Below are positions 11,966-41,107 of a DNA stretch of 64,000 nucleotides, one piece after another. Under the pieces are notes generated by a model that saw nothing but the letters and a program-made list of their open reading frames with translations, ran no database searches and was not told the origin of the DNA. The stretch spans positions 198,738 to 262,737 of the forward strand of contig CBDBKE010000004.1 of the NCBI GenBank assembly GCA_965206645.1, read 5' to 3'. This stretch comes from Terriglobia bacterium. GTDB lineage: Bacteria > Acidobacteriota > Terriglobia > JAJPHL01 > JAPKYU01. A program made the position numbers and the translations under genes. Numbering within the stretch: position 1 is the first letter of the stretch; every line of letters starts with the position of its first letter.

Positions 11966-11998
11966 TAAAGATGCTCGGCGGAAGCCAATGGTTTCGCC
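11966..11998 (-). promoter_or_regulatory. Putative ECF-sigma promoter upstream of degP (copy A)
   Basis: Minus strand GAAACC-N16-CATCT; 30/33 identical to 14808-14840. Confidence 0.5.
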
Positions 11999-12037
11999 GC
12001 CACGCAATTCCCACACATTTCCCCTGCAGGGAACAGA

Positions 12038-12097
12038 CCCCGCCAGCGCGCACAAAGCCAGCAGGATACGCTGCAGCCCGAGTTGGCGACGAGCCGG
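12038..12097 (-). repeat. Relic copy of the M20 peptidase 3' end
   Basis: 57/60 nt identical to 14956-15015, which encodes PARRQLGLERILLALCALAG. Confidence 0.95.
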
Positions 12098-12121
12098 TGG
12101 AAAAGTCGTCATTCAGGGTTT

Positions 12122-14725
12122 TCATTCTACTCTCGAGGACGGAGACAATGGGGGTTCGCGCCTTGTGGGGTGCCTCCGGCTCTCCTCTCCCAATGAGAAG
12201 GAGAGCCGCTCGACTGCCGTGAATGTTTTTTCCGACTCCTTGATTTCCAGGAACTGGTTTACCCCGACGTTGTGGAACACCTGCCGCGTGTCGCTGGTGG
12301 GCCACCAGATTTCCAGGGTTTCGATGCTGGCCGCCTTGCCCAGCCCGATGTGCTGCTCCAGCGGGGAGGCGCCAAACGATCCGCCGCTGCCGACGAGGCG
12401 GTGAATGAAGCGGCGTCCACCCTCGGGCGTCTGCACGGCAAGCTTGATGCGGGCGCCGATGGCCCCGCGGTTCGTCTTCACGCCCACCAGCCGCAGACGG
12501 ATCCAGTTGTTGCCGTGCCCGGGGTTTCTGAAGAGCAAGTTCGCGTGCCTGTCGCCCGGCACCATGCCGCCCATCTGAATAAAAATGTCTTCATCGCCGT
12601 CGTTGTCGATGTCGACGAAGGCCGCCCCGTGCCCCTTATGAAGACAGCCGGTCCCCGAGGAAGTGGTGACATCCACGAAATACTTCCCGTCGTGATTCCT
12701 AAACAACATGTTTGGAACTAGCACTGCGTAAGAAGGACTGCCGGTCCCCAGGTAGAAATCGAGAAATCCGTCATTGTCCAGGTCGCCGAAATTGACCCCC
12801 ATGGGGTTAAACACGCGGTCCAGCCGAACCTCCTTGGTCACATCCTGGAAGCCCGACCCGGTGTTCCTGTAGAGCTTGAGCGTCTCGACCTCCCCCGGCA
12901 ATTGCAAGTAACTGCGGACGATGTCCACGATTGAGCCATAGGTACTGGAAACGAACAGGTCCAGCCAGCCGTCGTTGTCATAGTCGAAGAACCAGGCCGG
13001 AAAGCTGAAAATGGGTCGTTGCACTCCCAAAGGTTTGGCCATGTCGGTAAACGTTAAATCCCGGTTGTTGTGGTAGAGGAAGTTCTCCGCAGACACGTTT
13101 GAGACGTAGAAGTCCGGGTAGCCGTCGTTGTCGTAGTCGCCCGCAACGACGGCTTTGGTGAACATGACCCGGTCCACGCCGGCGGCGGGCGCAATGTCCA
13201 CGAAGGTCCCGTCGCCCTGGTTGAGGAACAGCTGGCTGGGCGAGTGCTCGTTGCCCACGAACAGGTCCAGGTTGCCGTCCAGATCAATGTCGGCCCAGGC
13301 AGCGGTTTGCGTGGCGCTGGCGGGCACCGCCACCCCACTCGGGCGGGTCACGTCGGTGAAGGTTCCGTCGCAGTTGTTGCGCAGTAGCGAGTTGCGCATA
13401 GGGAGTTCCCATGCGCCCCGGAGCACCAGAATATCCAGGCAGCCGTCATTGTTGTAGTCAGCCGAGACCATGTTCAGCCCGCCAAGCTGATTGATCAGCC
13501 CGGCCTGCGCGGTTCGGTCGGTGAAGGTTCCGGTCCCGCTGTTGTGCAAGTAGCGCATCGGCGCGCAAGGGTCCATTGAGCTGGTCACAATGTCCAGCAG
13601 TCCGTCATTGTCCAGATCATCCACAATCGCTCCGCCGGCCGAGTTGAAGGTGTCGGCACCCACCAGAGGGGCCACGTCAACAAAGCGGCCCACGTCTTCC
13701 TTCGACTCAAAGGGGGCAAGAGGAATCCGGTATTGCCGGGGAACAGCCTCGGGGTACTTTCCCAGAGCCATGGAGGCAAGGTTCAGCAACCACCTCACCT
13801 CCAGGTCTTCCGGCTTTTGCTCCAAGAACTTGAGAAAATGCCGGATGGCGGCCTCCCAATTCGCCATCTGCTCCGGCTGCGCCCCGCCAAGCATCGGAAA
13901 CATGCAGGTCTTGGCATGTGCGCTGGGTACCAGGTTCTCAACCTCTGCCAATCGCAGGCGGGCAATCCCCAGCTTCTCCTCCAATTCCAGCAGCACCTGC
14001 TTGTCGCCGCGGGCGACAGCATGTTCGTACGCCGCTTGGAGATACTTGATCGTTTGATCTAAATCTCCACGGTGTGCCCACTGCTGAGCCAGCGTCTGAT
14101 AGACACCCAAGAGTCCAGCGTCGCCTACGTTCCTCGCGCTTCCGTTCTTGGCCTCTGCCAAATACTTTTCCAACTCTTGAAATCCGATGCGAACCGCCAT
14201 GATCTTGATCGCGCAGATGGTTTGCAAATCCTGTTCCCAGCCGACTGGCTTCTGGATGCGGTCAAACAGGTATTGAACTTCTCCAGCTCCCGAGACGTCG
14301 GTGGTCAGTCGGCGCTCCGGGGCGCGCTGCGCGCTCTCGATTTCGGGTCTCTCCGCTTCCTCTTTAAGCACCTTCAGGATCATGTAGCCGCCCGACGTTT
14401 CGACAACCCCGGACACCTGTCCTGCAGCTAGCCCCTTCAAGGCCTCCTGAATTTCGGGGCGTAAATCCGACAGCTTCACTTTGCCTAGATAGCCGCCCGC
14501 TGGCCCGGTGGAATCGATCGAGTGCTTTTTCGCCAGCTCGGCGAAGTCCTCCCCGCGCTGAAGGTTCGCCAGAACCTGCCGCGCCTCTTCGGAGGTGCGC
14601 AGCAGAATCATCCGCACAGCAACTTCCAGGGGCTGTTTCTGCTCGCTCGCCCAGAAGACGGACTCGATCAACAGGAAAGCAATGCCCAGCACGACCACGG
14701 CCGGGTACAGCTTGATTGCTTTCAT
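12122..14725 (-). CDS. PpiC rotamase + TPR-like + FG-GAP/VCBS + ASPIC/UnbV (CRTAC1 family) protein
   Basis: GEDFAELAKKHSID..GGYLG (parvulin), multiple DxDNDGxxD repeats, and NNWIRLRLVGVKTNRGAIGARI..SGGSFG..GLG (ASPIC/UnbV). Confidence 0.88.
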   Translation of the reverse strand: MKAIKLYPAVVVLGIAFLLIESVFWASEQKQPLEVAVRMILLRTSEEARQVLANLQRGEDFAELAKKHSIDSTGPAGGYLGKVKLSDLRPEIQEALKGLAAGQVSGVVETSGGYMILKVLKEEAERPEIESAQRAPERRLTTDVSGAGEVQYLFDRIQKPVGWEQDLQTICAIKIMAVRIGFQELEKYLAEAKNGSARNVGDAGLLGVYQTLAQQWAHRGDLDQTIKYLQAAYEHAVARGDKQVLLELEEKLGIARLRLAEVENLVPSAHAKTCMFPMLGGAQPEQMANWEAAIRHFLKFLEQKPEDLEVRWLLNLASMALGKYPEAVPRQYRIPLAPFESKEDVGRFVDVAPLVGADTFNSAGGAIVDDLDNDGLLDIVTSSMDPCAPMRYLHNSGTGTFTDRTAQAGLINQLGGLNMVSADYNNDGCLDILVLRGAWELPMRNSLLRNNCDGTFTDVTRPSGVAVPASATQTAAWADIDLDGNLDLFVGNEHSPSQLFLNQGDGTFVDIAPAAGVDRVMFTKAVVAGDYDNDGYPDFYVSNVSAENFLYHNNRDLTFTDMAKPLGVQRPIFSFPAWFFDYDNDGWLDLFVSSTYGSIVDIVRSYLQLPGEVETLKLYRNTGSGFQDVTKEVRLDRVFNPMGVNFGDLDNDGFLDFYLGTGSPSYAVLVPNMLFRNHDGKYFVDVTTSSGTGCLHKGHGAAFVDIDNDGDEDIFIQMGGMVPGDRHANLLFRNPGHGNNWIRLRLVGVKTNRGAIGARIKLAVQTPEGGRRFIHRLVGSGGSFGASPLEQHIGLGKAASIETLEIWWPTSDTRQVFHNVGVNQFLEIKESEKTFTAVERLSFSLGEESRRHPTRREPPLSPSSRVE

Positions 14726-14807
14726 GATATCGGTCCCACCTTTTGCTTGCGGCTGCCGGATGCCATCTCAGGCTTCCGCCCCCACAAGGCAGGGTGCGCA
14801 CGTCCCG

Positions 14808-14840
14808 TAAAGATGCTCAACGGAAACCAATGGTTTCGCC
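14808..14840 (-). promoter_or_regulatory. Putative ECF-sigma promoter upstream of the CRTAC1 gene (copy B)
   Basis: Minus strand GAAACC-N16-CATCT, about 80 nt upstream of ATG 14725. Confidence 0.5.
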
Positions 14841-14943
14841 TCCCCCGAAATCGGTGCGCATCCGCCCCCTTCCGGGACTGGACGCTGATTGGGTGCAGAG
14901 CGAGCAGGGCCAAACACAGGAGGCAGTAAGCGGAAGGCAGTGG

Positions 14944-16176
14944 CTAGCTGTCCACCCCCGCCAGCGCGCACAAAGCCAGCAGGATGCGCTCAAGCCCGAG
15001 TTGGCGACGAGCCGGGTCGTACCATTCCTGCGGAGAGTGGGTCGCGCCCCCTTGGCCGCCCCCACCCAGGGAAACTGCCTCGATGCCCAGCGCCAATGGA
15101 ATATTCGCGTCGGTAGAGGAGCGCTCGACACGCGAGGGGATCCCCAGATAGCGGTCCACTGCCCGCACCGTTTCCAGGATGCGAGCGTTCTGCGGCAGCT
15201 CGGCCGCGGGGCGTTCGCCAATATCCTGAACCTGATAGGTGAGCCTGCCACCCTGCGCGCGCTGGTTCTCCTCTTCCACCACCTCCCGGACTACGCGTTC
15301 CAAAATGGCCGCCAGCCGCCGGATCTCTTCCACCGAACCGGAACGGATGTCCACCTTGATGAAGGCGAAGGAGGGTACCGAGTTGACGCTGGTGCCCCCT
15401 TGGATTTCACCGACGTTAAAGGTAGTGCGCGGCTGCTTGGGGACGGAAATTTGGGCGAAGCGGGCCACCGCTGATCCCAGGGCGTAGATGGGGTTTGCCA
15501 GGCCGAAGTCACTCCAGCTATGCCCGCCGGGGCCCTCAACGGTGACGCGGAAGCGCTGGCTGCCCAGGCCGGAGGTGGTGATGTGATCCACGCTGGCTCC
15601 GTCCAACACCAGAACAGCACGCGCTTGCCGGCAGATCTCTTTCTGCTCAAGCAAGTGGCGCATGCCGTGCAGATTGCCTTCTCCTTCCTCGCCAACGTTG
15701 GCCACCAACAGCAAATGATCGCGCAGGCGCAGGTTTGCGCGGCGCAGGACGTGCGCCACGCCCAGCAGCGCCGCCAAGCCGGCACCGTTGTCGGTGATTC
15801 CTGGACCGTAGATGCGCCCGTTGTGGCGGTGGACCTCGATTCGATCCGATAGCCGGAAAACCGTATCCAGGTGGGCGCTCAGCACCAACAAGCGCCGTTG
15901 CCGCGCCGGCGCGGTGCCTCGCAGTTTGCCCAACACGTTGCCGGCAGCATCGCGCCGCACGCAGTCTAGTTTCAGTTTGCTGAACTGCTGGAAGAAGTAA
16001 TCGGCCCGAGCCTGTTCCGCAAAGGTGGGCGCCGGGATCGAGGTGAATTCGACATGCCGGTCAGTAATCCAGTCCGCCTCTTGCGCGATCAACTCCAGCG
16101 CCCGAGCTACCATTGCGCGGCGCGCCAGCACCTCTATCGTCTCGGTTGTCGGAGCGGCAGTGGAGCTTGCCAGCAT
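14944..16176 (-). CDS. M20/M25/M40 family metallo-hydrolase (peptidase)
   Basis: SAHLDTVF, GPGITDNGAG, GEEGEG, GPGGHSW and STDAN motifs. Confidence 0.9.
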   Translation of the reverse strand: MLASSTAAPTTETIEVLARRAMVARALELIAQEADWITDRHVEFTSIPAPTFAEQARADYFFQQFSKLKLDCVRRDAAGNVLGKLRGTAPARQRRLLVLSAHLDTVFRLSDRIEVHRHNGRIYGPGITDNGAGLAALLGVAHVLRRANLRLRDHLLLVANVGEEGEGNLHGMRHLLEQKEICRQARAVLVLDGASVDHITTSGLGSQRFRVTVEGPGGHSWSDFGLANPIYALGSAVARFAQISVPKQPRTTFNVGEIQGGTSVNSVPSFAFIKVDIRSGSVEEIRRLAAILERVVREVVEEENQRAQGGRLTYQVQDIGERPAAELPQNARILETVRAVDRYLGIPSRVERSSTDANIPLALGIEAVSLGGGGQGGATHSPQEWYDPARRQLGLERILLALCALAGVDS

Positions 16177-16290
16177 GGTCCTTCATGGTAACACAGCGAT
16201 TCGCCGGGACTTCTTCAGGAGCGTACCGAAAGAGACTTGTGACCCGCAGAGGCACAGACTTTCCAGGCTGTGCGGCGCTTCAGCAGCGTG

Positions 16291-16446
16291 CTAGTGTTGT
16301 GTCCCGGAAAAACGTTGCATATGTTTGTGTGCTTGTGGGACCGCTTGCTGACGCGCGCGGCTCTGTATCTTCAACGCGCTTCCGAGCCACGAGCGTGAGC
16401 GAGTGGTCATGAACTTTTGTAGCGAATTTCTGGGACGCGACGCTAG
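16291..16446. repeat. CTAG-bounded MITE-like element containing an inverted REP-like doublet
   Basis: Terminal IRs 16291-16310 and 16427-16446 (16/20); inner inverted pair 16341-16365 and 16382-16406. Confidence 0.7.
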
Positions 16447-16733
16447 AAGGAGAGGATGGCGGTCCGAGGTTCCTCCGACGTGTGGGGCAGGTAGAGCGTC
16501 TTGCAACGTTCACAGCGGTAGACTTCGGCATTCTCGCCAAACATTTTCTTGACCTCTTCGCCGAAGCCGCGCCAGCGTTTCAGGTGCCCGCAGCAGAGCT
16601 TGTCCTTGGCGTCCTTTTCGTTGCAGGCACGCATTCGCAGGGTGCGGCGCTTCACTTTCTGGCCGCTGGACAGGGTGGTCAGCAATTCCGAAACGGGAGG
16701 ATTCTCAACAGTCGTGCGAGGTTTGACGGCCAT
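16443..16733 (-). CDS. Small Cys-rich hypothetical protein (possible Zn-binding)
   Basis: 96 aa with C-x9-CCGH and YRCERC motifs; downstream of truA. Confidence 0.65.
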   Translation of the reverse strand: MAVKPRTTVENPPVSELLTTLSSGQKVKRRTLRMRACNEKDAKDKLCCGHLKRWRGFGEEVKKMFGENAEVYRCERCKTLYLPHTSEEPRTAILSF

Positions 16734-17712: not shown

Positions 17713-17802
17713 GTCAAGAGTCAGTGGATAACGAAAGGTGACAAGTCAAAAGTGCGAGCGAAAAGGGAAACGGCGTTTTGCGTTACTTTAGCTCATAGCC
17801 CT

Positions 17803-17837
17803 TCACTCCTCACTCGTCACTCCGCACTCACCACTAG
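17803..17837. repeat. Five tandem heptamers (NCACTCN)
   Basis: tcactcc tcactcg tcactcc gcactca ccactag, overlapping the pyrE stop. Confidence 0.7.
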
Positions 17838-21735: not shown

Positions 21736-22093
21736 CTACCACCTGCCCGCCCGGGTTTACAGGGAGGCTGATGAGGCAGGTGCCGGCTGGAGAGTGGGCG
21801 CAGCGGGCTATGGTGCGCTCGGAGCGCGGCCGGTCGGCGGACGGCCCGCGAGGCGAATCAAAAACCTTGCCTAAACCGCTGATACTCGCCGATGATAGGA
21901 GGCGCAGGTTCGGACTACCACCTGCCCGCCCGGGTTTACAGGGAGGCTGGTGAGGCAGGTGCCGGCTGGAGAGTGGGCGCAGCGGGCTATGGTGCGCTCG
22001 GAGCGCGGCCGGTCGGCGGACGGCCCGCGAGGCGAATCAAAAACCTTGCCTAAACCGCTGATACTCGCCGATGATAGGAGGCGCAGGTTCGGA
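21736..22093. repeat. 179-bp tandem duplication in the divergent intergenic region
   Basis: 21736-21914 and 21915-22093 differ at one position (21771 a vs 21950 g). Confidence 0.97.
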
Positions 22094-23544: not shown

Positions 23545-24005
23545 CGAGTGGGCTGTGCCCGGAGGCGCGCGAGCGGGAAGTTATCTCTGGACACCGTGCG
23601 CAGAAAGCGGGGCGGGTGAAACACCAGCCAAAGCCCGAGCAGCGCGGCGGCCAGATTCATCGCCACGTCGTACACCGCCGGATGGCGAAACACAGAAAAT
23701 AACTGGATCGTCTCGGAGGCCAGCGCGACACTGGCGCAACAGAAAACAGCGAGGCGGCGAGCGTCTCGGGCCACTTTTCTGAATGGAATCGTACTCAGCC
23801 CCAGCAAGAAAAAGGCCACGACATGATTGCTCTTGCGAAAAACGGTGTGCCCGAAGAGGGTGAGGTCGTCCTCGACGTCGACCGGCTTCCCCAAAAGTGA
23901 TTCCACCATGGCCACATAAGCGCTGTCTCCAGTGACGAAGTCGGTCGAGTACACCAGGATGACGACGCTCAGCACTGCAAAAGCGGCCCAGCTTCCCGCG
24001 TGCAT
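23541..24005 (-). CDS. VanZ family membrane protein
   Basis: RKSNHVVAFFLLG and SETIQLF..RHPAVYDVAMN motifs; hydrophobic helices. Confidence 0.8.
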   Translation of the reverse strand: MHAGSWAAFAVLSVVILVYSTDFVTGDSAYVAMVESLLGKPVDVEDDLTLFGHTVFRKSNHVVAFFLLGLSTIPFRKVARDARRLAVFCCASVALASETIQLFSVFRHPAVYDVAMNLAAALLGLWLVFHPPRFLRTVSRDNFPLARLRAQPTR

Positions 24006-24198: not shown

Positions 24199-24201
24199 AA
24201 G

Positions 24202-28996: not shown

Positions 28997-29093
28997 CGGT
29001 GGCGACGCCACGCGGCTGACGTTCCCCTCGCGCTCTCGCATGCCGAGGGCGCGCCAGTGGCCGGCGGCGCTGACTATGATGGAGTACGTCTGA

Positions 29094-30002: not shown

Positions 30003-30450
30003 CCTGCCTGACCCTGGGCCGGTAGGATTGCGCTGAGAATGGGCTCTTAAAGGTGTTTTTCGCTGCGGGTAGCGTTATAGCTGCACCAGTTTAGCACCTG
30101 CATTTCCAATGGATTACAGCCTCTTTTTCTGGCTGTAGCAAAATATAGCAGTTTTGTGGACTGACCGCATGAGGCTCAGAATCCGTTCCTGCCGATGTAC
30201 AATCCACTTGACGTGAATGTTGTCTGGCCACCCGCGCATTGATTCCCAAGGTGTCGGCTACATCGGCAAACGTGCCGCCCGTGTTCAAATCATCGCAGGC
30301 GAGGGTTGTCGGCAGCGATGTACAAGGCTGGGCAGAGGGAGCGAACGCAGAATAGTTAGGCTGCCCTAAGAAGATCTGGAAAAGGCGTTCCAGGCCGCAG
30401 GCTGGACTGAAGCGGCCGCACTAGGAGTCCGAACCGGCCTCAAGACTTTC

Positions 30451-30858
30451 GTGGCGACCATGCGGAACAGTGGCTACCACAAGGCCCCCTTTTCTCTCCT
30501 GTTTCTGGATGGGGATAAGCCCGTCTATGAATACCAGAAGGGCCTCAACACATTCGCCAAACGGCATCACCTTCGGGCATTCAAGCGACACCGAAAATAC
30601 AAGGGGCAGCAAGTCTGGGTCGCCTCTGCCACTCACGACACCGGGATTAGGGTTCGACGGAAAGGGACGGATTGGTATCACATCATCGACCCCCGAATCG
30701 ACCGCGAGCGAACCAAGATTGCCAACGACCTTCTATTTACGCGAATTGCCACCGCTCATGCGCTGGTGGACCGACCGCAGGCGCCGCGGGAAACCACAAA
30801 CGGCACCGGGGATAAAATCCTCACCGACGGCAAGATGCAGGTTTTGTTCTTCGACTGA
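30451..30858 (+). pseudogene. LssY C-terminal domain fragment
   Basis: APFSLLFL..YQK..KRHHLR..WVASATHDTGI..HIIDPRIDRER..ANDL; N-terminal part absent. Confidence 0.7.
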
Positions 30859-31160
30859 CTCCTACAGGCCCAGAATTCCCTGTTGTCCATGGTAGAAGAG
30901 CCCGGCCAGCGCGCCCGTCATGAGTGTGGCCAGAGTAGAACCCGCCAGCGCCCGAAACGCCAGAGCAGCGAGATCGTTCCTGCGAGAAGGAACCAGAGCG
31001 GCAATGCCTCCGACAAAGATCCCCATGGAAGCGACGTGGGCAAAACCGCACAGCGCGTACGAGAGGACTAGCAGCGCTCTGGGAGAGAGGGCCTTTGCGG
31101 CGCCCATTTCTCCCAACTGCTGGTAGGCTACTGACCTGCCGGCTTTCTTCGGACCACCGA

Positions 31161-32084
31161 TTACTGGAGAACAGCGCCAGTCGGCATGGTTAAGTCGCTC
31201 TCGTGTTCTTCTTGGTCAGCGTGAGCCGGCATCGCCGGCGAGCGCCCACCGTCATCCGAGCCAGCACGGAGCTGCGCTTTGAACTCGGCTGGCGTCAGAT
31301 AGCCAAGGCTCGAGTGCGGTCGCACGTCGTTGTAGTGCCGTCGCCATTGCTCGATCCCCACCTTCGCGTCCACGCGGTTCCGAAACCACTGCAGGCTCAG
31401 ATACTCGTCGCGGAACTTCCCGTTGAACGATTCGTCGGTCGCATTCTGCCACGGCTTGCCCGGCTCGATGAGCGCGGTTTCGATCTGCGCCTGGAGCAGC
31501 CACCGGAAAATCGCACCCGCGACAAACTCGGGGCCGTTGTCGGACCGGAGGTAACGTGGGGCTCCGTGGACGCTCACGAGCTGCGTGAGCACCTCGATAA
31601 CGCGCCCGGACCGAATGCCGCCGGCCACGTCGATCGCGAGTGACTCGCGGGTCCATTCGTCGACGACGGTGAGGCACTTGAGCGTCTGCCCATTCGCGCA
31701 GGTGTCGAACACGAAGTCGTACGCCCAGACGTGATTGACCGCAGTGGCGGGCACCGGGCGGGGCCGGCTCAGGGCGACCCGGCGCCGCGGCCGCCGCCGA
31801 GGCACCTGCAACCCCGCCTGGCGCCAGAGGCGATGGGTCCGGTCCGTGCTCATCGTGTGCCCTTCGCGTTTTAGGAAAATCCGAATCCGGCGATAGCCGT
31901 ACCGCGGATACTGCGCCGCCAGACGACGCATCGCGGCCAGCGCCGGGGCATCCCGGTCGACCAGCCGCGACTGGTAGCCCAGCGTGGACCGTGCGACGGA
32001 GAGCAAGGCGCACGCGCGGCGACCCGACAGACCGCGTGCACGTGCATACGCGACCTGCGGCCGGCGCACGCGTGCGCCTACCAT
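31161..32084 (-). CDS. IS3 transposase OrfB (DDE integrase core)
   Basis: YGYRRI, WAYDF, SDNGPEF and [10 protein letters not shown] motifs. Confidence 0.93.
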
Positions 32085-32090
32085 TTTTTT
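32063..32090 (-). promoter_or_regulatory. -1 programmed frameshift signal of the IS3 element
   Basis: A-AAA-AAA slippery heptamer (32084-32090) followed by the palindrome GGCGCACGCGTGCGCC (32063-32078). Confidence 0.8.
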
Positions 32091-32341
32091 CGGGTGATCT
32101 CCTTGAGCACGTCGATCTCCAGATCTCGATCGGCCACCATCTTTTTCAGCCGGCCGTTCTCCTGCTCGAGCTGCCGCAGCCGCTTCACATCGGCGGGCTC
32201 CAACGTGCCGAAGTGTTTCCGCCAGGCGTAGAGCGTCTGGGCGCTGACGCCGTTCTTTTTGGCCACCTCCGGAACGGGCCGCTGATCGGCCTCGCGGAGG
32301 ATCGTCACCATCTGCTCTTCGGTAAACCGGGTCTTCTTCAT
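32078..32341 (-). CDS. IS3 transposase OrfA (HTH)
   Basis: MKKTRFTEEQMVTILREAD..VSAQTLYAWRK..LEQENGRLKK. Confidence 0.93.
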   Translation of the reverse strand: MKKTRFTEEQMVTILREADQRPVPEVAKKNGVSAQTLYAWRKHFGTLEPADVKRLRQLEQENGRLKKMVADRDLEIDVLKEITRKKW

Positions 32342-33474
32342 GGCTCCCTCGTTTCTCCGAGGGCGCCATTCTCTCAGGCTTCAGCTGGTCCGGAAATCGC
32401 CAGGCAGGTCACTACCACCTCGGTGAGGACGATGCGCTTGCCGAGAAGCTGGGCTGCCCCAGGGAGGTCGCTGCTTTCCAAACCCAGCAGCCAGGCGAGT
32501 GGGGTGAACAGCCAGCCAAGGATTCGCTCGAGATTCAGCGGCTCGCCAAACCAAACGCTCAAAGGTGCTGTTGCATTTTCCAACGCCAGGTCTACGATCC
32601 CGACCATGCCCAAGACGGCAATGAGCAGGGTGGAGATGCCTGCCGCCAGCTTTAGACCGTCCCAGGAACCGGCGCTCAGCGCGGCCATGGTGTTGCCGTG
32701 GAGCTGGGACTCTGCGATTGGGGGCAGAGCGCTTGAGGTCTCCGGTTTGCCGGTCTCGGGAAGGATCAGTTTAGAGACCAGCGCTGCTGCTGGTATGGAG
32801 AGAAACGAGGCTGAGATGAGATGCCCGGCGATCTGAGGAAACGTGTCCTTGAGGAAGAAGACGTAAAGAGCTAGCGTCGTGGAGGCAACCGTAGACATGG
32901 CGCAGGTCAGCAGCGTTAGCAGTTCTGAGCGGGTCATCCCTTCCAGATAGGGCCGGACCGTAGTGGCTGATTCGACCCCCACGAAGATATTCGAAGCCCC
33001 GGCCACTGCCTCGGCCCCCGACAGCTGCAGTGTCTTCTTGAACAATCGCGCGGATAGGCGGATCAGCGGCTGAATCAGTCCGAGGTGGTAGCAGGCGGCC
33101 ATCAGAGCGGCGAAGAAAATCACGGCTGGCAACACCTGCGCCGCCAGGACAAACCCCACGGAAGGCTCTCCGGCCGAGGTGGTCTCACCCGGATTGAGCA
33201 CCAGCGGTCCGAAAAGAAACTCAGCTCCTACACGACTCGCTCCCAATAAGGCGACCACCAGGTCATTTACCCCGAGTAGGAGATGACGGGTCTGCGGTAC
33301 CAGGAAGACCACTGCCCCCAAAGCCAGCATCAACAGACCTGAGCCGAAAATCGTCCGCCAAGGCACAGGTCTCCGGAAGCCCCCCACTGCCCAACCCAGA
33401 CTGCCAAACCCAAGCAGTCCCAAGAAAGAGATCAAGTTCAGCACACTCATGACCCTATTAACGCATACTGTCTC

Positions 33475-33582
33475 CGTCGGCGTTAGTGTGGGCTGGATGG
33501 GACTGGCCGTGGGGAAGTCGGTTGACCTCGTTTGGCCCGTCACGTAGGCATTGCCGGAGGCATCTACAGAGATGGAGAAACC
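33475..33582 (-). pseudogene. SBBP beta-propeller repeat fragment
   Basis: GFSISVDASGNAYVTGQTRSTDFPTASPIQP, a single orphan blade. Confidence 0.75.
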
Positions 33583-34031
33583 AAAGGTCAAGGCGGACTA
33601 TTCGAAGTGACAAAATCCACATTGGGAGCAACTTGGGAGCAAAACCAGCTGTTCTTCTCTCAAACACGCCCCGCCACTGCCGCTCCGGCTCTTCGGTCCG
33701 CGACCGACCGCGCTGGCGTTCGCCGTCCTCTCGCTCATAGTTTTGCCGCCGCCGCTGCTTCTGGGAATCTTCATTCTCATCATCTGGCACTACCACAAGA
33801 AAACCCTATCCACGCCTGCATGAACTTCCGGAGTAACCGAGGCCACAGCACCTCGCGGCGCTCTTCGCGCCTTGGGTGCTACCGCGATACCGCCTTGTCA
33901 CCAGGAATGCCAGATAGATTGCTCCTAACCCCCCCTGCGGGCGGGGCGTAGCATGAACCCCAAGGACCTGTCCGAACCGCATCTTCTTGGGGGTTGCAAC
34001 AGTCCCACATGCCGCTCAATATGGAAATTTT

Positions 34032-34552
34032 TCAACCGGCAGGCACACACATAAATAAATCCCTACGAGGGCCATCCCGCCACGGGCCTGTCTGTCGGAG
34101 CTCGGCGGCAATTTGCTCAGCTCTCTGAGCAAGCTGCTCCTTTGTCCACCCCGAGAAGTCGTACCTAGGATCCGCCGCATTCACGTTGATTCCCACGGGA
34201 ACCCGAGTCGCATCGTTCAACTCACCCAAGAGCCGGGCCTCTAGTTCAAGGAGCTTTTCCGCCCGCCCGATGGCCTGTAGAGCTACCGAGTGATTACCTG
34301 AAGCACGCGCTTCTTCCAGGATCGCCTTAGCTTCAACTGCACGGCCCTTCAGCCGGTCGAACAGCGAATGTCATCGGCGGCCTGCTTCGCCTTCGCCAGG
34401 GTCGCCGGGATGTCGGTCTGCTTGTGCCGAAAGAGCGTCGTGGACGATGTTGCGTACCGTTTCGCTATGCTCCGCAACGGCTCACCGGCCACGACCGCCT
34501 GGTCAATTTCGGCCCTCTGAGAGTGCGTGCAAACGGTACAGGTTCGAGGCAT
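34032..34552 (-). pseudogene. Phage-like HTH protein (small-terminase-like), frameshifted near 34370
   Basis: MPRTCTVCTHSQRAEIDQAVVAGEPLRSIAKRY in one frame, then LFDRLK..ILEEARASG..ALQAIGRAEKLLELEARLLGEL in another. Confidence 0.6.
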
Positions 34553-34749
34553 ATTACTTATTCTAACATCTGCCGGGTATAGTCCTGGACTCCCCTGGGG
34601 AATGAGGGGAATGCATCGGTGTGTACAGGAGCCGATTTCAGCGCGGCGATTGTGGCGGCAAGGACCCGTGTACCCTGGATACCGCTCTTGGCTCTTTTCT
34701 CTCCGTGTGCTCCAATGTATAAACAATAACTTGAGTATTTTGCGGGAGG

Positions 34750-34776
34750 CGTGGGGGTTCAAATCCCCCTCTCCGC
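34750..34776 (+). repeat. attR-like copy of the tRNA-Leu 3' part
   Basis: cgtgggggttcaaatccccctctccgc, identical to 28590-28616. Confidence 0.93.
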
Positions 34777-34804
34777 CCCCCTTTTCTGCTCAATTGATTA
34801 CGGC

Positions 34805-34982
34805 TCGGTCCGCCGTTGATGATGATTTCAACCTCCTGCGTACCCGATGGCACACCCACTGGCACCTGTACGTTCACCTGGTAGAACCCCACGAATGCTG
34901 GGACCGGGCCGGAAAAGGCCACCTGGGCAGGTATACTGGCATTGTTCACCAACGGTGTGCTGATCGTCTCTGCCAGTGGTGG
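34805..34982 (-). pseudogene. TIGR03437-like C-terminal domain fragment
   Basis: PPLAETISTP..PAQVAFSGPVPAFVGFYQVNVQVPVGVPSG. Confidence 0.7.
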
Positions 34983-35005
34983 AGTGCTGGAGGAATCAAG
35001 AGATT

Positions 35006-36376
35006 ATGAAGGGCATCCGGATTGGGGCCGGGGCCGGCTTTAACGGCGACCGGATTGAGCCAGCGGTCGAGTTGGTCAACTCGGGAGCGTTGGACTATCT
35101 GGTTTTCGAATCCCTATCGGAACGGACCTTGCCGCTGGCCCAGCAGCGCAAGCGTGCGGATCCTTCAAAAGGCTACGACCCGTTTCTCGAGGCTCGGATG
35201 CGGGCAGTGCTGGGGGGATGTGCGCGCCGGGAGATAAAGATCGTCACAAACATGGGGGCGGCGAACCCTCAGGCGGCGGGCGACGTGGTGACCCGCATTT
35301 GCCGTGAGCTGAACCTACCTGGCGTGTCGGTCGCCATCATCACTGGCGATGACATCCTGGAGCAGGTGAAGCAAGGCGAGGTGCAATTAGAGGATTCCGA
35401 GCTGTGCCTGGACGAGGTGAAAGGCAGGCTGATCTCGGCCAATGTCTATTTGGGAGCGGATCCAATCGTGGACGCCTTGAAAGCAGGTGCCGACGTCGTG
35501 ATCACCGGGAGGGTCACCGATCCGTCGCTGTTTGTCGGTCCCATCCGCTACGAGTTGGGCTGGCCGGCCGATCACCCCGACCGGATGGGGCTGGCGGTGA
35601 TCCTCGGCCATCTGCTGGAATGCGGCGCGCAGATCACTGGCGGATATTTTGCCGATCCCGGCTACAAGGACGTGGAGGGTCTGGAGCGGCTCGGCTATCC
35701 CATCCTGGAGGTTTACGAGGACGGGCGCAGCTACGTCACCAAGGTTCCCGGGACGGGTGGGATAGTCAACGTCGCTACCTGCAAGGAGCAATTGTTGTAC
35801 GAGATCGGCGATCCGGCGAACTACATCTCCGCCGACGGGGTGGCAAGCATCCTCGAGGTGACCCTCAAGCAGGTCGGCCCGGATCGCGTCCAGGTGCTTG
35901 GTGCTCACGGGAAACCGAGACCCCCGCGATTGCGAGTGATTGTGGGCACGCTGGATGGATACCTCGGTGAGGGTGAAATTTCCTACGGAGGTCTGGGAGC
36001 ATACGATCGGGCTCGCCTTGCCGCGGAAGCTGTGAAAAAACGCCTGGAGTTGGTTAGGGCCGACCTCCGCGAGCTGCGAGTAGACTTTATCGGCGCCAAC
36101 TCCCTGTACGGAAAAGCCTCTCCGCAGTTAGAGCACGATCTTCCCGAGGTACGACTTCGTGTCTGCGGCCTAGCCTCCGATCCCCGTTCGGCGGAGATGG
36201 TAGGGAATGAGGTGGAGAACCTTCTGGTGAACGGACCGGCTGCAGGCGGTGGAGTCAGGGAACGAGTCCGGGAGGTCATCGGCTTGCATTCGGCTTTTAT
36301 CAGGCGTGAGGCGGTTCAACCGCGCATGGAGATTCGGCAGTGGGAACGATCCTATGAGACGAGTACGGTTACGTGA
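35006..36376 (+). CDS. Acyclic terpene utilization AtuA family (DUF1446) protein
   Basis: IRIGAGAGFNGDR, FESLSERT, NVYLGA, ITGRVTD, GHLLECG and EQLLYEIGDP motifs. Confidence 0.9.
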   Translation: MKGIRIGAGAGFNGDRIEPAVELVNSGALDYLVFESLSERTLPLAQQRKRADPSKGYDPFLEARMRAVLGGCARREIKIVTNMGAANPQAAGDVVTRICRELNLPGVSVAIITGDDILEQVKQGEVQLEDSELCLDEVKGRLISANVYLGADPIVDALKAGADVVITGRVTDPSLFVGPIRYELGWPADHPDRMGLAVILGHLLECGAQITGGYFADPGYKDVEGLERLGYPILEVYEDGRSYVTKVPGTGGIVNVATCKEQLLYEIGDPANYISADGVASILEVTLKQVGPDRVQVLGAHGKPRPPRLRVIVGTLDGYLGEGEISYGGLGAYDRARLAAEAVKKRLELVRADLRELRVDFIGANSLYGKASPQLEHDLPEVRLRVCGLASDPRSAEMVGNEVENLLVNGPAAGGGVRERVREVIGLHSAFIRREAVQPRMEIRQWERSYETSTVT

Positions 36377-36674
36377 GATTGCCCATAGCCGCGCGGGTGA
36401 TAAGGGGAACACGTTGATTCTTTCTCTTATCCCCTACCGGGAAGCTGACTACGAACACTTGCGGCGGGAAGTTACCGTGGAGCGTGTTCGCGAATTGTTC
36501 GGGGATATCTGCCGCGGGGAAATCATCAGATACGAGATCCCAACAATTGCCGCACTGAACTTTGTGCTGCACAATTCCTTGGCGGGAGGCGTCACCGCCT
36601 CACTGGCCCTGGATTCCCATGGGAAATGCTACTCCTCTCTGCTGCTGGAGCTGGAGATCGGTATCCCCGATTGA
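36354..36674 (+). CDS. AtuA-associated small ferredoxin-fold protein
   Basis: LREIAHSRAGDKGN..ALNFVLHNSLAGG..LDSHGK. Confidence 0.85.
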   Translation: MRRVRLREIAHSRAGDKGNTLILSLIPYREADYEHLRREVTVERVRELFGDICRGEIIRYEIPTIAALNFVLHNSLAGGVTASLALDSHGKCYSSLLLELEIGIPD

Positions 36675-36727
36675 TCGAGTCTGGCAAAGCACCTTTCTTT
36701 CCGACGACAACGCGTGGGAAGCCGAAA

Positions 36728-36880
36728 ATGAAAGAAATCTTGATGCCGAAGATAAGCAAAGCTACGGAGGCAGGGGCTGTTGTTCGCTGGTTGAGGAAGG
36801 AAGGTGAGCACGTCAAGAAAGGGGAAGTACTCCTCGATGTCGACACAGACAAGGTGACCATGGAAACAATGTCAGGCTAA
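36728..36880 (+). pseudogene. Truncated lipoyl/biotinyl attachment domain
   Basis: MKEILMPK..GAVVRWLRKEGEHVKKGEVLLDVDTDKVTME stops 8 aa after the lipoyl Lys. Confidence 0.7.
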
Positions 36881-36911
36881 TTAAAGCCGAGAACCATAGG
36901 AGATCAGGGAG

Positions 36912-37526
36912 ATGAGCAATAAGGACAAGCAGACGCGATACCAGCCGTACTCAGAATTAACACTGTATCCAGGTATGCAACTGAGTGCCGAGCGGCGCCG
37001 GCAGGTTGATGAGAACTTGATCGAGCCGGATGAGGTATCCGCGGACGATATCATTTACAAGCTGTCACGAATGGTTACCGGCACCTTGTATAGTCTGATC
37101 GCGTTGATGGAAGAACGATGGGGTAAAGAGGCTGCACGCGAGTTGGTCTTCCAGTGGGGGCGCCGGTGGGCCCGTGAAACTCTCGAACGGTGGATGCATG
37201 CCCGAGGTGCGAAACGGTTGACACCGGAGCTCTGGGCGCGCTTTCAGGACTACCATCACCTCATCTCCGGACCTATTGGCGCGCCGTCGTTCGTCAGGTA
37301 TGAGGGTGACTCCCAACTGGTTCTAAACCGCACCGGCCAAAACTGCATGCTCCACACCGGCCGTCCAGAGGGAATGGACAGTTATTGCGGGATAGCTGCC
37401 GACGGTATCTTCGTCGGCTACGGTGAGGTCTGCCCGGAATTATCCTGTGAACACCATCCTTGCGTATCGCGAGGCACGTCAGAATCCGACTGCGTGGTTC
37501 GCTTCACGATCAAGCCCGCAGAATAA
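36912..37526 (+). CDS. Hypothetical protein, ATC-hydrolase/V4R-like with Cys motifs
   Basis: EERWGKEAARE..WGRRWA, then C..H..YC and C.S.G.S.C..RF pattern; AGGGAG RBS. Confidence 0.55.
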   Translation: MSNKDKQTRYQPYSELTLYPGMQLSAERRRQVDENLIEPDEVSADDIIYKLSRMVTGTLYSLIALMEERWGKEAARELVFQWGRRWARETLERWMHARGAKRLTPELWARFQDYHHLISGPIGAPSFVRYEGDSQLVLNRTGQNCMLHTGRPEGMDSYCGIAADGIFVGYGEVCPELSCEHHPCVSRGTSESDCVVRFTIKPAE

Positions 37527-37691
37527 AACCGCACCCTCGGTTCACAGTCGTTCCAGGCATTGTCAAACGGTTGACGCGACTAAGAGGAGCGGACGAAGGA
37601 AGAGGGACGTGGAACTTTCCACCACCGTGCCACCTGAAGGGCAAGTTTGGCCGGTCCGCTTAGTCCGAAAGGTTCAAGCGGCACAGCAGAT

Positions 37692-38037
37692 TCAGCTTAC
37701 GACCTCGTTTACTTGTCTCTCTGGCTTGATGTCGGTGAAGTTAGCTATGTCGGCTCTCAGCTCCTCGCCGTCCCAGCCCCTTTTTCAGGTGTGTCTCGGT
37801 GTGTGCTCCCAGCCCCTTTTTCAAATCGTCAATGGAATTGAATAAAAGCATCGCCATGACCACGAAGGGCGCGGGTGCGTCAGGAGTCGATCCAGAAACG
37901 CCTTTGTCAGCGTCGATCCGGACTAATCCAAATGGCTTGAGTTTCTCTCTGACCAGCTTGAGGTGTGTCTCGGTGTAGTACTTGAGGTCGAATTTCGCAC
38001 CGGGCTTGTTAGGGTAAAGGACAACCAACCTAACCAT
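37692..38037 (-). pseudogene. EthD family reductase frameshifted by a 31-nt insertion (37771-37801)
   Basis: VLYP..FDLKYYTETHL. Removing the insert restores GAHGEELRADIANFTDIKPERQVNEVVS* (104 aa). Confidence 0.85.
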
Positions 38038-38391
38038 TTCTCTACCTCCATACCTACTTGGATTCGGGCGCATTACGCTGCGGAAGCCATTCTCGCTCCG
38101 AAATCTTAGGCTGCCCCTGCGGGCAGGTCAACGTGAACGGCCTACTCCGGACAGTTTATGCGGCGCGGCGGATCCTTGAAGAATTCTTGGCCTCGACCAG
38201 CAGGGTGTCCTCTCCGTACTTTCCCAGGCCAGTGTGGACTGGCGGAGTCCAAGCGGCACGAGATACATCCCCTTTTGTCCAGCGATGCCGGATAGACCCC
38301 CGCTAACGGGCTTGTGTCTACCTATCTTCTGCCCGGATGGTGGCGTTCCTTCCTGATAAGGGAAAGTAAACGCTAACCGACTAGTGGAGAC

Positions 38392-38460
38392 GCCGGAGCG
38401 CACCGGGTTCTGCGCCGTCACCAGTTGGAACGAGGCATCCAGAATAGCTGCGTCAGAGGC
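38392..38460 (-). pseudogene. Possible TIGR03437-like fragment
   Basis: ASDAAILDASFQLVTAQNPVRSG. Confidence 0.45.
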
Positions 38461-38471
38461 CAGTGAATTCA

Positions 38472-39133
38472 TCAACCACCTTGCTCATCGGGGAGTTTGA
38501 CTGCGGTCAGGGATTTGGTGAGCCCCAAGAATCGCTCCCTGTAAATCTGCGCTCCCGGAAACATACAAGCCATCTGGGTGTAGTCCAAAAGCCGAATCTC
38601 CTTGATGAACTCTCGGCAATATTCTGGCGTAGGTCTGGTGACCCATCCCAGGACAGTGAAATTGCGCAGAAGACGCAGCTGCCACTTCTTGGGCAAATAA
38701 TGAATGAAAGGCTAAGGAGATGGGGTTCAAACGGGAACAAGCGATTCGGCGTCTGGACATGGTAGCCAAGGCTAACGCGTGCAATCTCTCGGGCAAACGC
38801 CTCCTGACTGGCTGAGTCTCCAAGATGCTCGATCACCGAGTTGCTGAACACGATGTCAAAAGCCCTGTCTTTAAAAGGCAAACATCTGAGTCTCCAAGAT
38901 GCTCGATCACCGAGGCCATCTGCGATCACACTCGCATCCGCCTCCTCAATCTGCCCTGGAAGGTTCAAGATTGTGAGTCGCGGAGAGATTGGAAGAAGGG
39001 ACCAATTGAAGTCTGTTCCGCCCACATCGAGAATGGTCGTATTTATATTTGCAGAAAACAGTTCTTGAAAATGTCGCATCCTTCTGCTGCGAAAATAACG
39101 AAGAAACGGTTGGTAAAGGTCATGAATATCCAT
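38472..39133 (-). pseudogene. Class I SAM methyltransferase with a 27-nt insertion (38888-38914) and a -1 frameshift near 38712
   Basis: ILDVGG, FDIVFSNSVIEH and QTPNRLFPFEPH; the C-terminus PFIHYLPKKWQ..ERFLGLTKSL is in another frame. Confidence 0.85.
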
Positions 39134-39745
39134 CAGTGCTTTCCTGACCTAGACGCGGCCTCTCCTATGGCCTCGTTGCAGGGCAGACCCTTAGGCTGTT
39201 TGCCTGCATATGAGAGAACAGGGCGCAATGCATCTTCGCTCAGCGACTCATCTCCGGCCTCTCCGTAGACGGCGGGTCCACTGCATAATCTTCACTTCCT
39301 CGGATGCGCTATTCAAGTCTCTTTAAACCGAAAGGCTCCAGGCAGACGTTCCAAGGGAACCTCGTTGATTATAAGCTCAGCGCCTAACAGCGCGCCGGGG
39401 GGTGAGCCTAGGGTGCCGGACTCTTGGACTACCGCTTTCTCTCTAAGCGCGCCTACAATGCCGATTGTCAGTCCAGGAAGGTCCGTCGACGCAGGCCAGT
39501 CATCTTAAGTGCGATTCGCGACACGCAGGAGCTCTGCAAGAAAGACAGCGCGTTCGCTATATTCTCTTTCTTTAATCTTTAGCCTTAGGCCTGGGCAGGG
39601 GGAGCTTTTCGTGCAGCCGCAAGGCTGGGAGATGTAGCGAGCGCACGATAGTTAGGCCGCTGCTCGAAGCCTGAGACTCGTATTGCCTTTGGCGGAAAGT
39701 GCCCGCGGAAGAATCTTCTGCGAGAAAGACAGGGAAGCCAGGAGT

Positions 39746-41107
39746 ATGGCAACACCGTGTCCGCAGCAGTTCGTCAAGTCCCCACCCACCGGATGGGTGG
39801 ATTCCTTGCGCTCAATCGGGCCTGGGCGTGATTATCGTCGCAACAATCGTCGGCAGCGGCGAACTCGTAACGGATCAACCAAAGGACGACAAATCCTACC
39901 TTGGCGCCGAGCAGGGTGGTTCGTTGTTTCGTGCCTGGTCAAGGTGATCATTCAAGAACAGTGGGCCTACTACGTGATCACCTCAGGAGGCACCCTGCTA
40001 GACGCCACTTCCTTTCTTCTCGGCCCACGCGTGCGAGGACTCTCGTTGTGGACCTGGCTACTGTTCCTTTATTTCATCCTCAACATTTTGCCAGCAGCCG
40101 GTGTGGTTGGGATGACGGCGACCACGGCGGCACTGGCGACCGGCGTGGGAAGTGTCTCCTTTTGGGCCCTGGCGCTTACCGCTCTCACCATCGTGTTCCT
40201 GTGGTTCGGCACCTACGCCCGGATCGAAAAACTGTTTATTTTGATGGTCGCGCTGTTTTCGTTTTCCATGTGCATCGCTCTCGCGTTGACGCAGAGCACG
40301 CAGCTAGCCATTCGTTGGTCGGAACTGATTTCCGGGCTACGGTTTGAACTGCCGCCAGCAGGCATGTACATCGCGCTCTCCGCATTCGGCATTACCGGCA
40401 TCGCCACGCCGGAAATTATTTTTTACACCTATTGGTGTCTGGAAAAAGGCTACGGCCGTTACATCGGGCCGCACGAGGAAACTCCGGAGTGGCGGGAGCG
40501 CGCGCGGGGCTGGATTGCCGTCATGCGGAGAGACATCATGCTCTCTGCGGCCATTTACACTCTGATCACGATTGTGTTTTATCTACTGGGGGCGGCCATT
40601 TTGCACCGCACCCGACCCGATGCAGCGAACCTGGAAGGCCTGGACGTTGCCTTGGCGCTCTCGAAGAGTTTCACGGACTCCTTTGGGCAGTGGAGCTTCG
40701 TGATCTTCATGACTGGCGCTTTTTTGGTCCTGTACTCCACCTTTGTCGGCGCCTGCGCGTCCTGGGCGCGCTTCAGTGCCGACTTCTCCAAGAAGCTCGG
40801 CCTGATCTCGGCGACTGATCCTGCTCAGTGGGACCGATGGTGCAAGTGGCTCTCAATCTCCCTGGCCGCAGTTTTCCTGCTGGCATTCTTGCTCATCAGG
40901 ACGCCGGTGGCTCTGATCCTGTTTGGCGGAGTCATGCACGCTGTGTTTCTTCCACTGCTGGGACTTTCAGTGATCTATCTGTTCCACCATCGCGGCCGGC
41001 AAGGTCTGACTCCCGGGTCTCACGTGCGAGTCATCTCGTGGGTCTGCAGCGTCATCATACTCGCGGTTGTGATTTGCACTCTGTATCTGCAGACGGGTGG
41101 CGCCTGA
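39746..41107 (+). pseudogene. Nramp/MntH-like divalent metal transporter with a damaged 5' region
   Basis: SIGPG, then VIIVATIVGSGELV in a shifted frame, TTLLGAKVGFVVLWLI on the reverse strand (39873-39920), then VVSCLVKV and 9-10 further TM helices. The main frame stays open. Confidence 0.75.

Follow-up and report, generated by a model that had tools for sequence, protein, structure and literature searches.

FoSTeS/MMBIR denotes complex rearrangements generated by serial replicative template switching. [quoted passage not shown] The mutation classes seen at the locus analyzed here are already known from this literature.

The window (the whole 64,000-nt stretch of DNA that was analyzed; all coordinates below are window positions) belongs to the Terriglobia bacterium assembly GCA_965206645.1 (G000) and was compared with three congeners (G001, G002, and G003, the last being the most distant). 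The initial annotation had reported seven events of local sequence reuse lacking transposase, integrase, or IS-type ends, with both gene insertions bracketed by a duplicated target region and new genes arriving with a copy of the resident upstream region. All seven were located at their positions in the G000 assembly, with E-values for the repeats within the window ranging from 3e-5 to 6e-93 (BLAST), every repeat being far above chance expectation. Self-comparison and congener alleles indicate that they represent real local or intragenomic reuse; the empty-site alleles that had been predicted in relatives were found in the congeners. A Pfam domain scan identified no transposase or integrase domains in the seven inserts, and inverted terminal repeats, short fixed-length target duplications, and recombinase genes are lacking from all seven. 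Five of the seven events are not in G001, a sister species whose MIPS gene is ~98% identical to that of G000: the 179-bp duplication, both short insertions (27 and 31 nt), the 48-nt inversion, and the 1.1-kb insertion with the orphan gene. The FG-GAP insertion is common to three of the four congeneric genomes. Event ages differ, reaching from before the G000/G001 split (copy B of the orphan-gene junction, below) to essentially new, with 99–100% identity for the young events and 93% for the FG-GAP copies. On balance, and with moderate confidence, we regard the seven events as independent, ordinary structural mutations of different ages, rather than as the footprint of one special process.

The event most similar to a described short-range template-switch mutation lies in an Nramp-family transporter gene (Pfam Nramp), where a 48-nt segment (39873–39920, plus strand) is the reverse complement of the G001 sequence at 47 of 48 positions. 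As in such mutations, the segment is inverted in place and is accompanied by clustered small changes, and the alignment with G001 shows mutations densely clustered there. AACG/CGTT flank the segment, but unlike the described type this inverted repeat is only 4 nt long (with a 1-nt offset), and additional +1 and +2 indels on either side blur the ends; together, the inversion and indels garble about 36 Nramp codons. Inverted-repeat searches within the sequence itself did not reveal this inversion, which is detectable only against G001.

Two short templated insertions occur nearby. A SAM-methyltransferase gene (Pfam Methyltransf_11) carries a 27-nt in-frame insertion (38887–38913, plus strand) that is an exact copy of 38813–38839, 74 nt away; it is not in the G001 allele, and has 1 nt of identity at each junction. 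A 31-nt insertion (37770–37800, plus strand) has two templates, being a copy of 37807–37823 followed by a copy of 37962–37976; it frameshifts an island open reading frame, is missing from the 91%-identical G001 homolog (on contig C2), and shows 2–5 nt of microhomology at its junctions. Like SPDIR products, these two insertions, and the 35-nt filler of the orphan-gene insertion described below, are identical or near-identical to ectopic sequence of the same genome and have minimal microhomology, and one is a two-donor mosaic. They differ from SPDIR in that the donors are 13–490 nt away on the same strand, and in that the events are pure insertions and not patch substitutions; junction identity here is 1–3 nt, and the comparison is made from sequence rather than from recA, recJ, exoX, and dprA genetics. 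The microhomology at the two insertions and at the one side of the filler where it occurs (3 nt) is close to chance values. For the inversion and both insertions, we infer that a polymerase engaged in replication or gap repair switched templates over a short range: the nascent strand would have jumped to a template 13–174 nt away, or onto the opposite strand where short inverted repeats allowed it, before returning.

The leader/promoter region of the gene for myo-inositol-1-phosphate synthase (MIPS) contains a 179-bp tandem duplication (21736–22093, plus strand; copies at 21736–21914 and 21915–22093). The copies are 178/179 identical, number exactly 2.0, and have no flanking microhomology; the duplication ends 13 nt before the likely MIPS start codon at 22107, and the unit is single copy in both G001 and G002. 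A homology-free illegitimate join of sister strands would account for this structure.

The larger events involve the gain of a gene. Between an M20 peptidase gene and degP, a 2.7-kb segment (12098–14772; minus strand, as for the other parts of this site given below) carries one gene (CDS 12122–14725) for an 867-aa protein with FG-GAP_3, UnbV_ASPIC, and Rotamase (PPIase) domains (Pfam). The segment is 93.3% identical at the nucleotide level to G000:C4:1468773-1471381, 1.26 Mb away, and its ends are sharp, with 0 nt of microhomology at both. On the degP side are a terminator-like hairpin motif (copy A, 11966–12010) just upstream of the degP promoter, 82% identical to 14808–14852 and orthologous to the single copy at the G003 empty site, and a dead duplicate of the terminal ~20 codons of the M20 gene (12038–12097; 57/60 identical to 14956–15015), which is without the final 12 nt and stop codon and meets the paralogous segment at 12097/12098 with 0 nt of microhomology; this dead fragment is not in copy A of G001. 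On the M20 side, a 35-nt filler (14773–14807) that matches neither the paralog locus nor copy A, and is also found in G001 and G002, separates the FG-GAP segment from target copy B (14808–15015), which comprises the hairpin motif, a ~105-nt block, and the functional M20 3′ end. The insertion is present in G001 and G002 and absent from G003, where M20 adjoins degP; G001 additionally has its own tandem FG-GAP duplication. A T2SS-adjacent locus is a candidate for the ancestral home of the FG-GAP gene; G002 reads M20–FG-GAP–T2SSF, and G003 has a single copy in a third context.

The second gene insertion lies between the DUF72 and vanZ genes, where 23970–24198 and 25087–25315 are 86% identical over 230 nt and bracket 888 nt of unique DNA. 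Junction copy A (23970–24204, minus strand) contains the functional vanZ start and upstream region together with a decayed DUF72 3′ end that has a 1-nt deletion, and is ~95% identical to the single copy of G001. At its inner edge is a templated 35-nt filler (24202–24236, plus strand), 34/35 identical to its source inside the vanZ coding region (23712–23746, plus strand) and joined via the 3-nt microhomology CTC. The unique inserted DNA (24237–25086, minus strand) carries one orphan gene for a secreted protein (CDS about 24489–25070, 193 aa), with a GC3 of 0.76 on the minus strand. The protein has no Pfam match; a word-indexed protein search retrieved its own cluster only, and a full HMMER scan of 1.8 billion representatives yielded only four weak remote homologs (E 6e-6 to 9e-5). 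The insert has no second copy in the G000 genome and no match anywhere in G001. Junction copy B (25087–25315, minus strand) consists of the decayed first ~12 vanZ codons, the upstream region, and the functional DUF72 3′ end; its upstream region now lies in front of the orphan gene, as the initial annotation had proposed for installed genes. Copy B retains ancestral states in common with G003, and copy A and G001 share derived states; as read from these states, copy B either predates the G000/G001 lineage or came from outside it, the alternatives being an old duplication since lost from G001 and import of copy B from a divergent donor. A recent orphan-gene insertion in G000 is ruled out by these G003-like states, which have been lost from copy A and from G001.

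As in FoSTeS/MMBIR, each of the gene insertions is laid out as A-B-C / X / B-C-D. At the orphan site, the target is duplicated over 230 nt and the insert consists of the 35-nt vanZ snippet and a further 850 nt; at the FG-GAP site, the duplicated target is accompanied by the 35-nt filler and by the 2.7-kb segment copied from within the genome. A replicating or broken end would have exited the chromosome, copied or captured other DNA (the FG-GAP gene from 1.26 Mb away in the first case, the orphan gene preceded by the vanZ snippet in the second), and rejoined 130–240 bp upstream of its departure point, with duplication of the target. The extra templated segment at the orphan junction is as expected of a nascent end that departed, used a template elsewhere, and re-entered upstream of its exit. 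The breakpoints nevertheless mostly lack the microhomology of approximately 2–5 nt or more expected for FoSTeS/MMBIR (0 nt at the FG-GAP ends and also at the 179-bp duplication; a single orphan junction has 3 nt), and the scale is 1–3 kb, in a bacterium. Across events, most junctions have 0–1 nt of microhomology, so that positive evidence for any model driven by microhomology is weak. The FoSTeS/MMBIR-like or alternative end-joining mechanism initially proposed is supported insofar as the junctions resemble template switching or illegitimate joining, with 0–3 nt of microhomology, fillers drawn from several templates, and short inverted sequences at the flanks.

Foreign DNA bracketed by a directly repeated gene 3′ end is also the classical attL/attR picture, and the two gene insertions could in principle be decayed site-specific integrative elements that carried a copy of the target 3′ end and later lost their integrase. 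Elements of this appearance do occur in this genome: within the window, the 3′ end of tRNA-Leu (28534–28620) has a 27-nt perfect, att-like copy at 34750–34776 and is followed by a 9.8-kb island (28621–38398) that is absent in G001, and elsewhere a young 100-nt perfect duplication of the ETF-QO 3′ end flanks a foreign low-GC SIR2-like gene. However, domain scans detected no integrase or remnant in either insert; the FG-GAP insert is not foreign but a sharp-ended, gene-sized paralog from the same genome; and the orphan insert starts with the vanZ snippet, which would not be a product of att recombination. The repeats, moreover, are 130–240 bp long, take in non-coding sequence as well as the beginning of the adjacent gene, and are 82–95% (FG-GAP) and 86% (orphan) identical, unlike identical att cores. 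We therefore consider an integrative origin highly improbable. In contrast to integrase-mediated islands, neither gene insertion has a recombinase gene; and in contrast to IS elements and transposons, their target duplications measure 130–240 bp, the ends are sharp without inverted repeats, and no transposase domain is encoded. It is conceivable, although quite unlikely, that gene insertions with 60–240-bp target duplications mark a separate route by which these Acidobacteria gain genes without a recombinase, and in which a replicating or broken end would copy or capture a single gene and re-enter upstream of its exit. Three such cases are present in G000 (FG-GAP between M20 and degP, the orphan gene between DUF72 and vanZ, and the SIR2-like gene at the ETF-QO 3′ end); the other long-spaced repeat pairs genome-wide mostly bracket ordinary genes, paralogs, or IS copies, and ETF-QO alone resembles the two gene insertions of the window. 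Such a route, if real, would place the newcomer gene automatically behind a duplicate resident promoter or terminator, and leave both neighbors intact.

[quoted passage not shown] The genome was searched for Ku, LigD, and retroelement reverse transcriptases, as suggested in the initial annotation. Ku is encoded in all four congeners and is intact in G000. The LigD of G000, which is not beside Ku (based on inspection of the Ku neighborhood), has its polymerase domain, but the ligase domain is reduced to positions 215–296 of 302 (the last 82), directly adjoining an IS21-like block, and no further ligase-domain match was found anywhere in the G000 assembly; LigD is intact in G002 and G003 and was not detected in G001. 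Because of this truncation in G000 and the lack of a detectable LigD in G001, the canonical Ku/LigD pathway is probably not working now in either genome. Unlike the expectation for NHEJ, event density does not follow LigD status. The single reverse transcriptase in the G000 genome is of the group-II-intron type; no poly-A-like or intron features are present in the inserts, and nothing ties this enzyme to the events.

These observations allow a further explanation, namely that error-prone break repair is elevated specifically in the G000 lineage, with breaks arising from an IS bloom (the genome has >100 IS copies) and being repaired, for want of a working Ku/LigD ligase, by alternative polymerase-driven end joining; templated insertions, homology-free duplications, and captured fragments would then accumulate in G000 unusually often. 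The truncated LigD ligase domain, intact in G002 and G003, fits this scenario, as do the five derived events within about 29 kb of alignment with a sister whose MIPS gene is ~98% identical, and the additional young ETF-QO duplication elsewhere in the genome. The window has 4 repeat clusters versus 0.9 expected (Poisson P = 0.013) at a genome-wide total of 61 clusters (13.8 per Mb); 2.7% of G000 sliding windows reach 4 clusters, placing the window in the top ~3% of its own genome. The initial annotation had set local-duplication density in excess of that of related genomes as the check on its claim of a single window-wide signature of elevated remodeling. In 20 loci of 20 kb (400 kb) per genome, examined with identical local-repeat search settings and counted by eye, local repeats occur at 12/20 loci in G000, 12/20 in G003, and 9/20 in G001, and pairs of at least 93% identity at about 7–8, 7, and 5 loci, respectively; G000 is no higher than its two congeners at this sample size, which would miss a less than two-fold difference in density. 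Density in G000 hence equals that of G003, which has an intact LigD, and of G001, which has no detected LigD and none of the window IS. Furthermore, the IS bloom, with copies at least 99.5% identical, is more recent than both gene insertions, and G001 has its own perfect local duplications (L064 and L079) besides its tandem FG-GAP duplication. Lineage-specific elevated repair therefore appears unlikely; some local or lineage enrichment may still exist, given the 4 clusters against 0.9 expected. As density is equal to that of the sisters and the ages are widely different, a window-wide elevated process is not supported, and the events are better read in line with the accompanying caveat of the initial annotation, namely that they could have unrelated mechanisms. 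The young, perfect or near-perfect events, namely the 179-bp duplication, both short insertions (27 and 31 nt), and the 48-nt inversion together with the 1–2-nt indels beside it, might also be artefacts of assembly or amplification. They are known from the assembly alone (4 contigs, 98% completeness): exact-protein look-ups with the orphan protein and the methyltransferase found no independent assembly carrying the sites, two metagenome pattern scans for both alleles of the 27-nt and inversion sites gave zero matches, and one inversion-flanking indel lies in a G run, a frequent type of long-read error. Yet there is a one-base difference between the 179-bp copies and another between the inversion and G001, which is what real DNA would show as it diverges; the 27-nt insertion preserves the reading frame; older events of these kinds have many substitutions and are common to independently assembled species; and similar perfect local duplications are present in all three assemblies compared. 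We accordingly give the artefact explanation little credence.

The reading of the seven events as independent mutations of different ages guards against over-reading, in that a striking cluster of scars would represent background structural mutation comparable to that in two sister species. The window also provides a natural set, of modest value, of polarised bacterial examples (an in-place inversion, one- and two-donor insertions, a homology-free tandem duplication, and two gene insertions whose target duplications are long); comparable events have been documented mostly in eukaryotes or in laboratory selections. The scars probably persist because the lineage tolerates mildly harmful changes. 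This is suggested by the IS load, with dispersed repeats of three or more copies (IS-like) occupying 662 kb, ~15% of the G000 genome, and by the location of three young events in genes that already look damaged (the garbled Nramp gene, a frameshifted methyltransferase gene, and the frameshifted island open reading frame).

The same 28-kb span has been remodeled by classical mobile elements, which are absent from the initial annotation. An IS3-family insertion sequence (31132–32419, minus strand) interrupts a nupC-like gene and has all the hallmarks of an IS: a transposase (Pfam HTH_21/rve/rve_3), terminal inverted repeats with TG...CA ends, and a short target duplication (CTAC). The tRNA-Leu island, in which no recombinase domain was identified among the open reading frames scanned, and a MITE-like 161-nt dispersed repeat lie in this span as well. 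The G000 genome is in an insertion-sequence bloom, with 34 other copies of the window IS3 at 99.5% identity or above (35 in total). The IS of the window is shared with a distant congener at 99–100% protein identity; G001 is without it, and G003 is itself IS-rich.

The window lies at C4:198738-262737 of the genome under study (G000; 4.41 Mb, 4 contigs, 61% G+C), and was compared with three congeners, G001, G002 and G003, which share 99, 95 and 92% protein identity, respectively, with the window in myo-inositol-1-phosphate synthase (MIPS; about 98% at the DNA level for G001). Self-comparison of the window recovered all of the repeats described in the initial annotation, which had read seven local events as a signature of window-wide template-switch remodelling. 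The empty-site or ancestral alleles it predicted were also seen in the congeners: in G003 for the insertion of an FG-GAP gene, and in G001 for the insertion of an orphan gene and for the young events.

Four events appear young in the assembled sequence. The 179-bp tandem duplication (21736-22093; 178/179 identical positions) comprises exactly two units, lacks flanking identity and ends 13 nt upstream of the likely MIPS start; the unit is single-copy in G001 and G002. A 27-nt insertion (38887-38913) duplicates 38813-38839 with one matching base per side (a perfect 29-nt repeat pair at 38812 and 38886), and adds nine residues, missing from G001, within a SAM-methyltransferase fold. A 31-nt insertion (37770-37800), missing from the G001 homolog, is a mosaic of sequences 13 nt and 174 nt downstream; a lower-threshold scan recovered its parts as a perfect 17-nt pair (37771 and 37807) and a 19-nt pair (37784 and 37958). 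The 48-nt inversion (39873-39920) was not picked up by inverted-repeat searches of the window, is not a repeat, and is visible solely in alignment with G001, from the reverse complement of which it differs by one base. It is flanked by AACG and CGTT, and together with +1 and +2 indels on either side it scrambles some 36 codons of a gene for an Nramp-type transporter while leaving the overall frame intact.

The two gene insertions are older. At the orphan-gene locus, G001 has DUF72, a single upstream region and vanZ, whereas in G000 copies B and A, separated by 888 nt, lie between DUF72 and vanZ and form a 230-nt repeat pair (23970-24198 and 25087-25315; 86% identity). Copy A terminates within a DUF72 3' remnant at ...GGGAAGCTC, and a shared CTC joins it to 35 nt copied from within vanZ (23712-23746 and 24202-24236; 97% identity), followed by approximately 850 nt of unique DNA with the minus strand as coding strand (GC3 0.76). 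The encoded protein (193 aa, with a signal-peptide-like N-terminus) starts 16 nt past copy B, so that the gene stands behind a second vanZ upstream region; searches assigned it to no Pfam family and gave no paralog in G000 and only remote, weak homologs. Within this upstream region (24025-24050 and 25141-25166, minus strand), the block GCAATTGGCTAGCGAAGTGCC (gene strand) is the same in both copies and in G001 and G003, and its GG-N10-GC spacing, approximately 22 nt ahead of the vanZ start, is that of sigma-54 promoters. Copy A shares 95% identity with G001 but only 86% with copy B; with G003 as outgroup, several sites are derived in both copy A and G001 and ancestral in copy B. Two histories fit these data: a duplication that predates the divergence of G000 from G001, followed by loss in G001, or the import of copy B, together with the insert, from a diverged donor; under both, the insertion is not recent.

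At the FG-GAP locus, the minus strand encodes, in this order, M20 peptidase, an FG-GAP/ASPIC/PPIase protein of 867 aa, and DegP. The inserted segment (12098-14772) is 93.3% identical to a paralog 1.26 Mb distant (C4:1468773-1471381, beside type II/IV secretion genes), and has sharp ends 47 nt upstream of the start codon and 24 nt past the stop. Its left end meets, without microhomology, a dead 60-nt duplicate of the M20 3' end, and its right end is followed by a 35-nt filler that matches neither the paralog locus nor the other target copy, and then by a second hairpin copy; the flanking repeats are a 60-nt pair (12038-12097 and 14956-15015; 95%) and a 45-nt companion pair (11966-12010 and 14808-14852; 82%). 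G003 has M20 directly beside degP, with one hairpin and without the insert, and a single FG-GAP ortholog at another place; G001 has the insert, two hairpin copies, and three FG-GAP copies; in G002 the order is M20, FG-GAP, secretion genes. In the degP-side target copy, G000 retains the dead M20 3' end and G001 the downstream block, such that the duplicated target decayed differently in each species. The FG-GAP insertion, common to three species, is an old insertional duplication that also doubled at least 130 bp of its target. At C10:1439898-1445073 of G001 the FG-GAP paralog is tandemly duplicated, both copies being approximately 92% identical to the window gene; gene-scale duplication of this family is thus not confined to G000.

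Short local copies (25-300 nt, at least 93% identical, at most 5 kb apart and not part of IS copies) identified by genome-wide self-BLAST form 61 clusters in G000 (13.8 per Mb); among them are some dozen perfect tandem duplications, 37-225 nt in length, whose junction identity is 0-4 nt with one exception. The window holds four clusters against 0.89 expected (P = 0.013), a count reached by 2.7% of sliding windows and by 3 of 67 non-overlapping windows. Across twenty 20-kb loci (400 kb) per genome, searched by find_repeats with identical settings, local repeats occurred at 12 loci in G000, 12 in G003 and 9 in G001, and pairs of at least 93% identity at about 7-8, 7 and 5 loci, respectively; G001 has perfect local duplications of its own (loci L064 and L079). 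These comparable counts argue against an elevated local-duplication density relative to these two congeners, and hence against the remodelling claim.

Of the repair genes named in the initial annotation, the search covered Ku, LigD and reverse transcriptases. Ku is encoded in all four congeneric genomes (intact in G000, C2:196472-197380), and one reverse transcriptase of the group-II-intron type was found. LigD of G000 has the polymerase domain, but its ligase domain is cut to the last 82 of 302 positions; the remnant (region C2:447013-450799) begins 2 nt after an IS21-like block (C2:447013-449493; up to 81 copies), and the missing part was found nowhere else in the assembly. G002 and G003 each encode an intact LigD; in G001 no LigD domain was detected.

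Each event fits an already described mutation class. The in-place inversion may have arisen by template switching between short inverted repeats (PMC8604942, PMC5453318, PMC7202029), and the short templated insertions by SPDIR-type microindels (10.1101/2023.11.22.568220) or serial slippage. The gene insertions match the leave-copy-return architecture of FoSTeS/MMBIR, or that of end joining with fragment capture; junction microhomology is mostly 0-1 nt, which does not discriminate replicative switching from end joining. Background structural mutation, conspicuous in a lineage that presumably tolerates insertions under relaxed selection, best accounts for events that differ so widely in age and are about as dense as in sister genomes. 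A much less likely reading is that gene insertions with long target duplications constitute a distinct, recombinase-free route of gene gain.

Other remodelling is also evident in the span. An IS3-family element (31132-32419; TG...CA ends, CTAC target duplication) interrupts a nupC-like transporter gene; it has 35 copies in G000 and 17 in the distant G003 (99-100% protein identity), with none found in the closer G001 and G002, a distribution that suggests recent horizontal spread between species. A second IS3-type family contributes dozens of further copies, and dispersed repeats with at least three copies total 662 kb (15% of G000). A 9.8-kb block (28621-38398) following tRNA-Leu (28534-28620) is absent from G001 and is divided in two by a perfect 27-nt copy of the tRNA-Leu 3' end (34750-34776); it contains genes for a methyltransferase, an LssY_C protein and AtuA, the IS3 copy and broken nupC, among others, with no integrase domain among the scanned ORFs. 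Two stretches of this island (33490-33574 and 34803-34993) have short matches to many G001 places: in one, a fragment of an SBBP beta-propeller repeat gene is fused to the frame of the broken nupC, and the other is an approximately 190-nt element directly after the tRNA 3' copy. The M20-truA spacer, which differs in G001 (666 nt vs 248 nt), carries a MITE-like 161-nt dispersed repeat (16289-16449) with eight other copies (93-99% identity) and a match on another G001 contig. Further DNA additional to G001 occurs at 17714-17825 (112 nt) and 41143-41275 (133 nt), each without a second genome copy. At the 3' end of the ETF-ubiquinone oxidoreductase gene (C4:907915-910000), a 100-nt perfect direct repeat brackets a 1.9-kb low-GC stretch that holds a gene with a broken frame, SIR2-like by eye; this is a third, perfect example of the architecture of the two gene insertions in the window.
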